Source of the DNA: Octopus vulgaris
Lineage: Eukaryota
Length of the DNA stretch: 64,000 nt
Reading direction: 5' to 3'
Assembly: GCA_951406725.2 (NCBI GenBank)
Contig: OX597821.1
Span: 28,892,001-28,956,000 of the forward strand
The notes below the pieces were generated by a model. The model saw nothing but the letters and a program-made list of their open reading frames with translations, made no database searches and was not told where the DNA came from. This document shows positions 19,807 to 55,286 of the stretch, in pieces. Each line of letters starts with the position of its first letter. Position 1 is the first letter of the stretch. Position numbers and translations under genes: made by a program.

Positions 19807-20191
19807 TCTGTCTGCCGCACACATGCACCCACAAATTCACATACATACACACATGCACACACATATACACACATACATACACTGATACACACTTCAACAC
19901 ACGCACACACAATTTTCTCACTTTTTTCGTTATATTCATTTCAGTGTCTTCTTCCCCAGCCCGTGCATGTATGACAACCTGTGGATATGATTCAATATAA
20001 ATCACACACACTGATACGCACACACACAGACACACACACGACACACAAACATGTTCGTCGTTCGAAATTTGCGTATATATATCTATATATATATATAGAT
20101 ATAGGTATAGATAGATATGCTGTTTTCTTCCACCATCCTTCACATGATTGCATTTTCCTTTTACTCTCTCCGTCACCATCCTTTATATATG

Positions 20192-20235
<44 letters not shown>

Positions 20236-20353
20236 TTAGGAATGACCCTAACAGGTCATTCGTCCACCAGAAAGAGCAGCCATAACTCACACCGCCAAGT
20301 AGTAGTAATTCAAAAATTAGGTGAAAATTCAAAAACATTTACCCTAATTCATC

Positions 20354-20451
20354 TTTTAGACGTTGCAACGTTTCTGTGTCATTAATGATTAAATTAGCTT
20401 AATTAAATTAAATTAAGCTAATCTACCATAGGTTACACTTCATCAGTAAAA
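20354..20451 (-). ncRNA. Type I hammerhead ribozyme (474-bp unit)
   Basis: Reverse complement of 21216-21313. Confidence 0.8.
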
Positions 20452-20827
20452 AACCTGGGAGAGACAAATATACACGAGGCGTCTGTATCGATGCCTAGGG
20501 AATATCTGTCTTAAAATTTTCAAGACTGACGTATTCGCGCCAAACTTATCAGCAGTAAATATAAACTGCCGATTCAATCTCAGAATTATTCAGAAAATTA
20601 TCAATTAGTCAATTTAGGGTAGCAAAAAAATTCAATAGAAATTTATCGCTACCAACGGCCTAGTGGAAAAGAGAAAATAGTCAACGACTAAGTATATAAA
20701 TATAACAATTTAGGAATGACCCTACCAGGTCATTCGTCCACCAGAAAGAGCAGCCATAACTCACACCGCCAAGTAGTAGTAATTCAAAAATTAGGTGAAA
20801 ATTCAAAAACATTTACCCTAATTCATC

Positions 20828-20925
20828 TTTTAGACGTTGCAACGTTTCTGTGTCATTAATGATTAAATTAGCTTAATTAAATTAAATTAAGCTAATCTAC
20901 CATAGGTTACACTTCATCAGTAAAA
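20828..20925 (-). ncRNA. Type I hammerhead ribozyme (474-bp unit)
   Basis: Reverse complement of 21216-21313. Confidence 0.8.
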
Positions 20926-21215
20926 AACCTGGGAGAGACAAATATACACGAGGCGTCTGTATCGATGCCTAGGGAATATCTGTCTTAAAATTTTCAAGAC
21001 TGACGTATTCAGTGGTAGCGATAAATTTCTATTGAATTTTTTTGCTACCCTAAATTGACTAATTGATAATTTTCTGAATAATTCTGAGATTGAATCGGCA
21101 GTTTATATTTACTGCTGATAAGTTTGGCGCGAATACGTCAGTCTTGAAAATTTTAAGACAGATATTCCCTAGGCATCGATACAGACGCCTCGTGTATATT
21201 TGTCTCTCCCAGGTT

Positions 21216-21313
21216 TTTTACTGATGAAGTGTAACCTATGGTAGATTAGCTTAATTTAATTTAATTAAGCTAATTTAATCATTAATGACACAGAAACGTT
21301 GCAACGTCTAAAA
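21216..21313 (+). ncRNA. Type I hammerhead ribozyme (474-bp unit)
   Basis: TTTTA-CTGATGA-[AGTGT..AGATTAGCTTAATT/AATTAAGCTAATTT..ACACA]-GAAAC-GTTGCAAC-GTC-TAAAA. Complete core, stem I TTTTA/TAAAA, long stem II, palindromic stem III ACGTTGCAACGT; predicted cut after 21308. Confidence 0.82.
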
Positions 21314-21688
21314 GATGAATTAGGGTAAATGTTTTTGAATTTTCACCTAATTTTTGAATTACTACTACTTGGCGGTGTGAGTTATGGCTGCTCTTTCTGG
21401 TGGACGAATGACCTGGTAGGGTCATTCCTAAATTGTTATATTTATATACTTAGTCGTTGACTATTTTCTCTTTTCCACTAGGCCGTTGGTAGCGATAAAT
21501 TTCTATTGAATTTTTTGCTACCCTAAATTGACTAATTGATAATTTTCTGAATAATTCTGAGATTGAATCGGCAGTTTATATTTACTGCTGATAAGTTTGG
21601 CGCGAATACGTCAGTCTTGAAAATTTTAAGACAGATATTCCCTAGGCATCGATACAGACGCCTCGTGTATATTTGTCTCTCCCAGGTT

Positions 21689-21786
21689 TTTTACTGATGA
21701 AGTGTAACCTATGGTAGATTAGCTTAATTTAATTTAATTAAGCTAATTTAATCATTAATGACACAGAAACGTTGCAACGTCTAAAA
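21689..21786 (+). ncRNA. Type I hammerhead ribozyme (474-bp unit)
   Basis: Identical copy; predicted cut after 21781. Confidence 0.82.
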
Positions 21787-22162
21787 GATGAATTAGGGTA
21801 AATGTTTTTGAATTTTCACCTAATTTTTGAATTACTACTACTTGGCGGTGTGAGTTATGGCTGCTCTTTCTGGTGGACGAATGACCTGTTAGGGTCATTC
21901 CTAAATTGTTATATTTATATACTTAGTCGTTGACTATTTTCTCTTTTCCACTAGGCCGTTGGTAGCGATAAATTTCTATTGAATTTTTTTGCTACCCTAA
22001 ATTGACTAATTGATAATTTTCTGAATAATTCTGAGATTGAATCGGCAGTTTATATTTACTGCTGATAAGTTTGGCGCGAATACGTCAGTCTTGAAAATTT
22101 TAAGACAGATATTCCCTAGGCATCGATACAGACGCCTCGTGTATATTTGTCTCTCCCAGGTT

Positions 22163-22260
22163 TTTTACTGATGAAGTGTAACCTATGGTAGATTAGCTTA
22201 ATTTAATTTAATTAAGCTAATTTAATCATTAATGACACAGAAACGTTGCAACGTCTAAAA
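22163..22260 (+). ncRNA. Type I hammerhead ribozyme (474-bp unit)
   Basis: Identical copy; predicted cut after 22255. Confidence 0.82.
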
Positions 22261-22636
22261 GATGAATTAGGGTAAATGTTTTTGAATTTTCACCTAATTT
22301 TTGAATTACTACTACTTGGCGGTGTGAGTTATGGCTGCTCTTTCTGGTGGACGAATGACCTGGTAGGGTCATTCCTAAATTGTTATATTTATATACTTAG
22401 TCGTTGACTATTTTCTCTTTTCTACTAGGCCGTTGGTAGCGATAAATTTCTATTGAATTTTTTTGCTACCCTAAATTGACTAATTGATAATTTTCTGAAT
22501 AATTCTGAGATTGAATCGGCAGTTTATATTTACTGCTGATAAGTTTGGCGCGAATACGTCAGTCTTGAAAATTTTAAGACAGATATTCCCTAGGCATCGA
22601 TACAGACGCCTCGTGTATATTTGTCTCTCCCAGGTT

Positions 22637-22734
22637 TTTTACTGATGAAGTGTAACCTATGGTAGATTAGCTTAATTTAATTTAATTAAGCTAATTTAAT
22701 CATTAATGACACAGAAACGTTGCAACGTCTAAAA
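22637..22734 (+). ncRNA. Type I hammerhead ribozyme (474-bp unit)
   Basis: Identical copy; predicted cut after 22729. Confidence 0.82.
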
Positions 22735-22953
22735 GATGAATTAGGGTAAATGTTTTTGAATTTTCACCTAATTTTTGAATTACTACTACTTGGCGGTGTG
22801 AGTTATGGCTGCTCTTTCTGGTGGACGAATGACCTGTTAGGGTCATTCCTAAATTGTTATATTTATATACTTAGTCGTTGACTATTTTCTCTTTTCCACT
22901 AGGCCGTTGGTAGCGATAAATTTCTATTGAATTTTTTTGCTACCCTAAATTGA

Positions 22954-23013
<60 letters not shown>

Positions 23014-23150
23014 CATACATACATATAGTCACAATAAGGATATTTAAACCTCTTATACGTATATTTTATCCAAGATACACCGGTTTAATATATTATATTT
23101 TGAAGAAATATTTCTTCAATGATTATATGTAAAATATCATAAAATATTTA

Positions 23151-23299: not shown

Positions 23300-23640
23300 C
23301 ATACAGCGAATGTTAACATAAACCTGAAGATCAGTAAAAAAGAGAACACCTATGCTGAACTATTAAGTAATCTGCAGCTTCTCTATCCAGATTGCAAGTT
23401 CAGGTTTATACCTGTAATTATTGGTGCCTTGGGATATGTAACACACCTCCTATGTACCGATCTTGAGAAATTAGTCTTCTCAAAACCAGAAAGGAGAAAG
23501 CTAGTTCGAAGACTACAGATCCAATCACTTGCGCTGTAAATATCTGTAAAACTTTCAAGGAGTTTATCATTTAAATATAAAGCATGTCTAGATAAGCAAC
23601 TATATGCATGAGAATACATACATAAAACATACAAATGTGC
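23300..23640 (+). mobile_element. 3' end of an RLE-type (R4-like) non-LTR retrotransposon
   Basis: [36 protein letters not shown], an RLE C-terminus, embedded in (TACA)n. Confidence 0.8.
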
Positions 23641-54360: not shown

Positions 54361-54427
<67 letters not shown>

Positions 54428-54677
54428 CTGACAGGACACAGAAAGTGTGTCTATGGCCAGCTGGAGGAGTGTGTCCTCCTGGGGCTAAAAACTACAGTAG
54501 CATCCACCCTTAGGGGTAGCCATATTGAGATGGCAAATATACGTCACGATGTGTTACCGCTACTGTATATAACTCACTTTGATATTTATCATTGTTTGAT
54601 TTCACTTTTTCAATATCAGCGACAGTGGACGCTGGAAAAAGTATAAGTATTTGTGAAGGAGATCTAATTCTCGCCGA

Positions 54678-54747
54678 CAACTATGATTGTCACACGCTGA
54701 CGAGAGGTCAATACCTCGAAACTCGAGTCCGTGTGTATCATAAGTTG
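54678..54747 (+). ncRNA. Type I hammerhead ribozyme (352-bp unit)
   Basis: CACACG-CTGACGA-GAGGT(CAAT)ACCTC-GAAAC-TCGA-GTC-CGTGTG, with stem I extended by CAACTATGAT/ATCATAAGTTG; predicted cut after 54729. Confidence 0.93.
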
Positions 54748-55029
54748 AAGACGGGAAGGATGACTTCCCTTTGCAAATACTGACAGGACACAGAAAGTGT
54801 GTCTATGGCCAGCTGGAGGAGTGTGTCCTCCTGGGGCTAAAAACTACAGTAGCATCCACCCTTAGGGGTAGCCATATTGAGATGGCAAATATACGTCACG
54901 ATGTGTTACCGCTACTGTATATAACTCACTTTGATATTTATCATTGTTTGATTTCACTTTTTCAATATCAGCGACAGTGGACGCTGGAAAAAGTATAAGT
55001 ATTTGTGAAGGAGATCTAATTCTCGCCGA

Positions 55030-55099
55030 CAACTATGATTGTCACACGCTGACGAGAGGTCAATACCTCGAAACTCGAGTCCGTGTGTATCATAAGTTG
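55030..55099 (+). ncRNA. Type I hammerhead ribozyme (352-bp unit)
   Basis: Identical copy; predicted cut after 55081. Confidence 0.93.
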
Positions 55100-55250
55100 A
55101 AGACGGGAAGGATGACTTCCCTTTGCAAATACTGACAGGACACAGAAAGTGTGTCTATGGCCAGCTGGAGGAGTGTGTCCTCCTGGGGCTAAAAACTACA
55201 GTAGCATCCACCCTGAGGGGTAGCCATATTGAGATGTCAAATATACGTCA

Positions 55251-55286
<36 letters not shown>

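Follow-up and report, generated by a model that had tools for sequence, protein, structure and literature searches.

What kind of element is the 474-bp hammerhead array in this part of the Octopus vulgaris genome, and by what route do its units enter the DNA? The window (the whole stretch of DNA analyzed, 64,000 nucleotides, contig OX597821.1, positions 28,892,001 to 28,956,000) had been annotated with four plus-strand hammerhead units between positions 21013 and 22957, read as a retrozyme or a non-autonomous Penelope pLTR multimer.

Layout of the insertion

The array is real. TRF places it at 21013 to 22958, with a period of 474, 4.1 copies, and 99% matches, and its hammerhead cores begin at 21221, 21694, 22168, and 22642. 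The spacing of C17 gives monomers of 473, 474, and 474 nt, as had been predicted. However, the annotated extent is that of the forward arm alone, and an inverted arm carrying two more hammerheads was overlooked. The insertion spans 20231 to 22957 and has two head-to-head arms with (TA)n at both ends. Positions 20231 to 21010 form the inverted arm of 780 nt, which is 100% complementary to part of the 474-bp array; the arms meet 5' to 5' at 21010/21013, and the outer ends of both run into (TA)n. The parts of the insertion are as follows.

20231..22957, no strand: entire insertion, a head-to-head pair of arms flanked by (TA)n tracts
20231..21010, minus strand: inverted arm with ~1.65 units, running from unit position 297 (5' end) to site A (3' end) and then into (TA)n
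21013..22957, plus strand: forward arm with 4.1 units, running from unit position 179 (5' end) to site B (3' end) and then into (TA)n
21011..21012, no strand: 5'-5' junction, 2 nt belonging to neither arm
20184..20231, no strand: (TA)n target, left
22957..23027, no strand: (TA)n target, right

The unit is low in GC (G or C at 159 of 474 bases) and non-coding, with stop-free frames wholly within the element of at most 61 aa; no RT plus GIY-YIG ORF is present in the element at 20231 to 22957. The unit has a folding z of -5.9, and 0 of 100 shuffles are equally stable. Outside the core it is unlike the 352-bp hammerhead unit of the same window, as had been noted (longest match, 10 nt; E, 0.24). 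The initial annotation also remarked that the array starts and ends within the same ~50 nt. This holds in the window but is accidental as a general rule: 5' arm ends vary across loci, and the 3' ends alone are fixed. The inverted arm and the two fixed ends, both of which had escaped attention, hold most of the mechanistic information. Outside the element, a short frame at window positions 23303 to 23540 bears what we take to be a resemblance to the C-terminal end of a restriction-like-endonuclease non-LTR retrotransposon.

A dispersed family and its sister

The hammerhead repeat is a dispersed, genome-wide family. In the genome searched (2.8 Gb, 227 contigs, microsatellite-rich), a 14-mer of the unit has 453 exact matches, compared with 5 for the reversed control, and a DNA search with the unit gave at least 222 matches (39 of 1520 candidates scored). 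Copy identity runs from 75 to 100%. Three sets of loci were analyzed: set 1, the 38 best-scoring loci plus the window; set 2, 40 stretches chosen by the 14-mer alone (39 of them aligned), from contigs 1 and 2 and in one case from contig 3; and set 3, 28 non-redundant loci found with two diverged queries. There is also a sister family with a 470-nt unit and ~73% identity (loci L100 to L128; e.g., L100:1261-1731, minus strand). One sister copy, arm 2 of L057, was excluded from the counts for the 474-nt family.

The hammerhead ribozyme

Each unit contains CUGANGA, GAAA, and NUH in type I order, and the element contains six such hammerheads.

21213..21316, plus strand: type I hammerhead 1, core from 21221, C17 at 21308
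21686..21789, plus strand: type I hammerhead 2, core from 21694, C17 at 21781
22160..22263, plus strand: type I hammerhead 3, core from 22168, C17 at 22255
22634..22737, plus strand: type I hammerhead 4, core from 22642, C17 at 22729
20825..20928, minus strand: type I hammerhead of the inverted arm, C17 at 20833
20351..20454, minus strand: type I hammerhead of the inverted arm, C17 at 20359

The stem descriptions given earlier largely stand. The distance from CUGAUGA to GAAA is 65 nt by count, in keeping with the reported long stem II; its 14-bp contiguous helix is predicted, with an internal loop near the base of the stem. Stem III is a palindrome as claimed. Stem I, which had been called weak and A-U only, can be extended to 8 bp with two G·U pairs. 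The base of stem II, which had been called imperfect, can be drawn in the window copy either as A·A or as a G-C pair with an extra A on each side. The closing pair of stem II next to a hammerhead core is usually G10.1-C11.1. In relatives the position adjoining the core is G-C, A-U, or A·A, and A·A is typical of the youngest subfamilies; the sister 470-nt family has the canonical G-C at the stem II base and a GC-richer stem I. Published precedents, cited here and below for the available parts of each text, include the axolotl HHR_Amex2, which has a U·U mismatch at the base of helix II and still reaches 22% cleavage (PMC7229834), and the extra base after A9 that is a trait of PLE hammerheads (PMC4209133).

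Across 15 related representatives, hand-chosen to span the subfamilies, 88% of cells pair, compared with 30 to 47% in slid controls, and changes on both sides of a pair occur at three pairs of stem I, four of the stem II base, and two of stem III. Stem III is present as four different palindromes, a class of sequence in which template switching can produce compensatory changes without selection. Paired changes persist in stems II and III of the A·A subfamilies, which suggests that these may be under continued selection. The core is conserved as well: in 24 diverged, non-independent loci, it differs in 10 of 229 calls, compared with 272 of 2114 neighboring calls, so that the outcome named beforehand as counting against the annotation, a core no better conserved than its flanks, is not what is seen. 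Eight of the 10 core differences are at C17 and resemble gap placement beside a 1-nt deletion; the hammerheads concerned keep GUC, although the search pattern itself required GUC.

The predicted active fold lies 0.7 kcal/mol above the local MFE and ~5 kcal/mol above the minimum in the full circle, and eight of nine Xenopus retrozyme dimers gave no cleavage in vitro (10.64898/2026.07.22.740005). Judging from sequence and predicted folds, activity of this hammerhead is likely but would be modest, perhaps assisted by dimerization or by protein. Only 3 of 128 5' arm ends lie at the cleavage site, which is no enrichment and speaks neither for nor against cleavage. Among the matches listed (150 of 250), Rfam Hammerhead_1 marks only the 352-bp array, and motif searches such as those of PMC8557442 used a core spacer of 7 to 17 nt; a hammerhead with so long a stem II would escape short-spacer searches, and it is absent from the listed Rfam matches. 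Other long-stem-II hammerhead-like cores, unrelated to the unit, were seen at L077, L113, L115, L138, and L109, the last of which repeats at 558 bp. Long-stem hammerheads may be common in the Octopus vulgaris genome.

Two fixed 3' ends and the (TA)n target

Arm 3' ends fall at one of two positions, site A (unit position ~131, range 128 to 140) or site B (~228, range 226 to 230), each preceded by a hairpin and the nine letters CCTAAATTG. A representative unit shows both sites.

21878..21921, plus strand: site A, 9-bp hairpin, CCTAAATTG, and TA-like patch; putative reverse-transcription start
21960..22010, plus strand: site B, GGTAGC..GCTACC hairpin and CCTAAATTG; putative second reverse-transcription start

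The TA-like patch of site A has 11 of 12 matches to (TA)n, and hairpin A has one compensatory pair change. In the sister 470-nt family both sites carry CCTTATATT; the motif changes jointly at A and B between families.

The pairing of the two ends is strict. Sixty-three loci were scored as two-armed or almost two-armed. Both ends could be classed in 57 of them, and all 57 are A+B (24/24, 21/21, and 12/12 in the three differently chosen sets), with no A+A and no B+B. In five further two-armed loci one end is unclassed. Among single-armed loci, 25 end at A, 14 at B, and 4 elsewhere. The sister family ends at sites A and B too, and 10 of its loci are A+B by eye. One sister locus (L115:980-1800) is B+B; since its inverted match continues into unique flank, it is probably a later inverted duplication. 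A tract of (TA)4 or longer adjoins 158 of 160 A or B ends. At 55 simple junctions between arms, the overlap is 1 to 8 nt in 27 and longer in 2; a further 7 are blunt, and a gap or insertion separates the arms in 19.

These ends resemble those of PLEs, whose hallmarks are inverted 5' copies and a tail of 30 to 40 bp at one end (PMC8557442). The PLE RT starts at two internal sites, the stretch between them becoming the tail, and the PLE protein, which is predicted to be a dimer, cleaves and extends both strands of AT-rich DNA (PMC11167929). Because PLE RT starts define the tail in this way, and because PLEs of the same genome have the same architecture (see below), we infer that sites A and B are RT start sites with a tail of ~95 nt between them.

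Two other ways of making an inverted arm were rejected. Snap-back copying is ruled out by the 32 of 57 loci in which the A arm is longer than the B arm minus 90 nt. In L1 twin priming, two primings give a head-to-head inversion. In contrast, the putative priming sites of this family are both fixed, and its arms overlap in the template; they abut, the B arm stopping near site A, in only 3 of 57 loci, which rules out priming of the L1 type.

The 352-bp array of the window is single-armed and lies between (TA)n tracts (54423 to 55254), and its end is at about the same unit position as that of another copy (L137:2808-3368). Its (TA)n location and the position of its end suggest that it shares an insertion route with the 474-bp element.

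Penelope elements of the same genome

A GIY-YIG search (150 of 6136 candidates scored) gave at least 148 matches. RT plus GIY-YIG elements with a CxxC linker are present, many with 781-aa frames, and by that motif they would be Neptune-type. Two other RT plus GIY-YIG families have an inverted arm and a one-sided tail and lie in (TA)n. No autonomous element sharing the sequence of the unit was found among 83 partly overlapping GIY-YIG-anchored stretches, and no PLE ORF was found in frames of at least 200 aa in 40 motif-picked stretches. In the sampled stretches, neither these GIY-YIG matches nor a second, older GIY family yielded a pLTR resembling the 474- or 470-nt unit. The single match, at L277, was rejected as a partner: it is on the opposite strand to the GIY match and more than 2 kb away, and we read it as a separate copy of the sister family.

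The pLTR of the 781-aa Neptune-type PLE and its relatives (L129 to L134, L075 to L098; e.g., L132:5355-5395) carries a hammerhead-like motif of its own, in the order UUGAUAA, stem II, GAAA, CAUG, U, in which U3/A8 replace C3/G8 (more than 25 copies). A related family has GCAA instead of GAAA. Such a U3/A8 motif would escape canonical motif searches. The 781-aa family also has, upstream of its RT-GIY frame, a frame of 479 aa that lacks a convincing Pfam match (L132:768-2204).

Unit homogeneity and the template

Within a locus, the units of both arms carry the same variants, so that there is one haplotype per locus across arms. In set 1, 208 of 210 shared variants that could be scored (at least two units) are present in all units of their locus, and the 39 loci have 28 haplotypes. 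Of 93 scorable private variants in this set, 27 are in all units, 59 in a single unit, and 7 in some units. No single-unit variant is common to different loci. Set 2 agrees: relative to the window unit, 359 differences are carried by each copy in their locus, with 34 within-locus mismatches in 4286 positions. The sequence is unchanged at 151 of 152 crossings of the cleavage site, which is evidence against imprecise template jumps from one cut monomer to another. Even in loci with 10 to 25% divergence from the window locus, the units are near-identical to one another, so within-locus identity reflects a shared template. The near identity of units had been taken to mean a recent origin; the window insertion is indeed young, with one single-unit substitution, but its lineage spans 75 to 100% identity.

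Variants shared across arms and the unchanged junctions fit rolling reverse transcription of a circle. Our main reading is that 474-nt monomers are copied as circles into (TA)n by a PLE-like RT-endonuclease that uses both target strands and two sites on the RNA, to which we give a probability of roughly two in three. In the window itself the variant T108G occurs in every second unit, and the two arms keep a common register (6 of 6 positions); the template there was therefore probably a two-unit molecule on which both primings fell in the same unit. Alternatively, two RNA molecules from one source locus may have served as template.

The strongest competing explanation, which we regard as unlikely, keeps the double priming at A and B but makes the template an uncleaved linear multimer from a homogeneous master array, so that copying would need neither the hammerhead nor circles. 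Mutation of the hammerhead had no effect on PLE insertion in vitro, where the main substrate was unprocessed RNA (PMC11167929), the inert Xenopus dimers point the same way (10.64898/2026.07.22.740005), the A·A at the stem II base may slow cleavage, and the alternating window variant requires a template of at least two units. However, a linear multimer should pass on unit-specific variants, and no single-unit substitution is shared while 59 are private. New lineage variants have instead been fixed repeatedly in all units; 28 haplotypes among 39 loci with all-unit variants require a recurring one-unit bottleneck, which is a prediction of a monomer circle template. The conserved core and covarying stems also argue against a dispensable ribozyme.

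Considerably less probable is that a short PLE-type insertion, only slightly longer than one unit, was later expanded and homogenized by unequal crossing-over and gene conversion, as in the satellite-birth model (10.64898/2026.07.22.740005). Inserted arrays do recombine, as seen from the partial variants (7 of 93) and from two units of L065 with a common deletion; partial patterns occur at L065, L046, and L063. AT-to-GC transitions make up 38 of 90 all-unit variants compared with 32 of 197 single-unit variants (P = 6e-6), and GC-biased conversion would equally lead one to expect the all-unit spectrum, which shows no strand bias (A>G, 15; T>C, 23). The same counts, from 105 loci (P = 0.66), led us to reject heritable ADAR-driven mutation of the template, at which 9 A>G among the 27 private all-unit variants of set 1 had hinted. 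Against later expansion, however, the variants are common to both inverted arms, also in loci that are 10 to 25% diverged; partial patterns are rare; very young loci, almost without single-unit changes, are already multi-unit; and the first insertion would already have had to span the cleavage site.

Helitron- and Helentron-like elements have tandem units and a hairpin shortly before the 3' end. Rolling-circle transposition of DNA, with the hairpin before each end as terminator, would account for this likeness and has a similar phylogenetic distribution (10.64898/2026.07.22.740005), but it is highly improbable given that the 5' ends are scattered across the entire unit rather than fixed, that two alternative 3' ends are always paired head-to-head, that a ribozyme acting at the RNA level is conserved, and that RT-encoding PLEs of the same genome show the same architecture.

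Transcript hints

Among 20 sequencing runs, none recorded as RNA and 14 guessed to be RNA, 10 contain at least half of the sampled unit words. In contigs of guessed-RNA runs, a 474-back joint is equally compatible with tandem DNA and with a circle. Contigs of two guessed-RNA runs from different studies have clustered A>G changes at window positions 21787 to 21990 (depth, 3 to 4). Several of these changes are absent from genomic units, and the shared positions 21925 and 21936 are never G in ~230 genomic units each. These changes hint, though only weakly, at editing of sense transcripts, possibly of the A-to-I type.

Proposed mechanism

We conclude that the element is an animal non-LTR retrozyme, likely mobilized by a Neptune-type Penelope element. 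The retrozyme features and PLE insertion hallmarks described above mean that the initial annotation was right in kind.

Monomer copying could proceed in three steps. First, arrays would be transcribed, the hammerhead would cleave after GUC, and a host ligase would close the 474-nt monomer; circularization by host ligase has been shown for other retrozymes (PMC7229834). Second, the PLE protein, probably as a dimer, would bind the hairpin-plus-motif sites A and B and nick both strands of (TA)n. Third, one (TA)n strand would prime at A and the opposite strand at B, each RT would travel round the circle for 0.1 to 7 turns, and the two cDNA 3' ends would be joined via 0 to 8 nt of microhomology or short insertions. 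The outcome would be head-to-head arms with a ~95-nt tail on one side only, and single-armed copies would be events in which one priming alone left an arm. In its most specific form, which we put forward only tentatively, this is double rolling-circle target-primed reverse transcription, in which a PLE dimer sits on one 474-nt circle at two evolved hairpin-plus-motif sites, each of its subunits primes from a different strand of the (TA)n cut, and two RTs chase each other around the circle.

Relation to known systems

The kind of element is already known. Metazoan non-LTR retrozymes are likewise dispersed, non-coding, low-GC tandem units with a type I hammerhead each (PMC7229834; 10.64898/2026.07.22.740005), and PLEs have been proposed as their mobilizing partner as well. 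Mobilization by PLEs via circles is proposed in these papers and in PMC4209133; across the papers covered, the copying of a small RNA circle from both target strands by a PLE RT is put forward without demonstration. The 474-nt unit is longer than the ~170 to 400 nt of PMC7229834 and falls within the 51 to 972 nt of 10.64898/2026.07.22.740005, while the 65 nt of stem II contrast with the 4- to 8-bp helices of PMC4209133.

With PLEs, including Anolis Poseidon, the element shares an inverted 5'-truncated arm, a tail at one end, two RT starts downstream of the hammerhead, and microsatellite targeting (PMC8557442; PMC11167929), as well as the extra A after A9 (PMC4209133). Unlike PLEs, it has no ORF, and its arms are rolling multimers of one unit; the ~95-nt tail, with two similar hairpin-plus-motif modules, is longer than the 30 to 40 nt of PLEs (PMC8557442), and the unit has no sequence similarity to the autonomous pLTRs sampled. 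Another parallel is offered by non-autonomous Chlamys PLEs such as MRC1, which also have multicopy head-to-tail insertions (PMC8557442). However, these derivatives resemble their autonomous partners at the 3' end, whereas the unit has no such partner among the sampled stretches, and their clade mostly lacks canonical hammerheads according to the same source.

What seems new is the two-armed, two-ended layout, the strict A+B pairing, and the long stem II, none of which we found described for retrozymes in the literature covered, mostly non-subscription main texts. For metazoan retrozymes, the available texts describe neither arms arranged head-to-head, nor two fixed ends, nor targeting of (TA)n; "inverted" and "microsatellite" have no occurrences in the text of PMC7229834, and "ribozyme" and "retrozyme" are absent from the available main text of an octopus repeat paper (PMC13282606). 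File S1 of PMC8557442 includes cephalopod PLEs and "half-core" hammerheads with 35- to 50-nt spacers, and that file or the repeat library of PMC13282606 may already contain the family or its partner.

The sources available base the link between animal retrozymes and PLEs on co-occurrence, on homology of pLTRs, and on the proposal of a circular template. The family adds footprints at the level of the insertion: two fixed starts, the strict pairing of one end of each kind, and a single haplotype in each multi-unit insertion. It also names exact RNA sites and a target that can be tested in the existing in vitro assay with purified PLE protein, and it bears on how the tandem and inverted structures of PLEs form, an open question in PMC8557442. 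If double rolling-circle copying is true, it would explain how retrozyme circles enter animal genomes and why PLE insertions have an inverted arm and a one-sided tail, and it would mean that a retrozyme uses a partner with no sequence similarity to itself.
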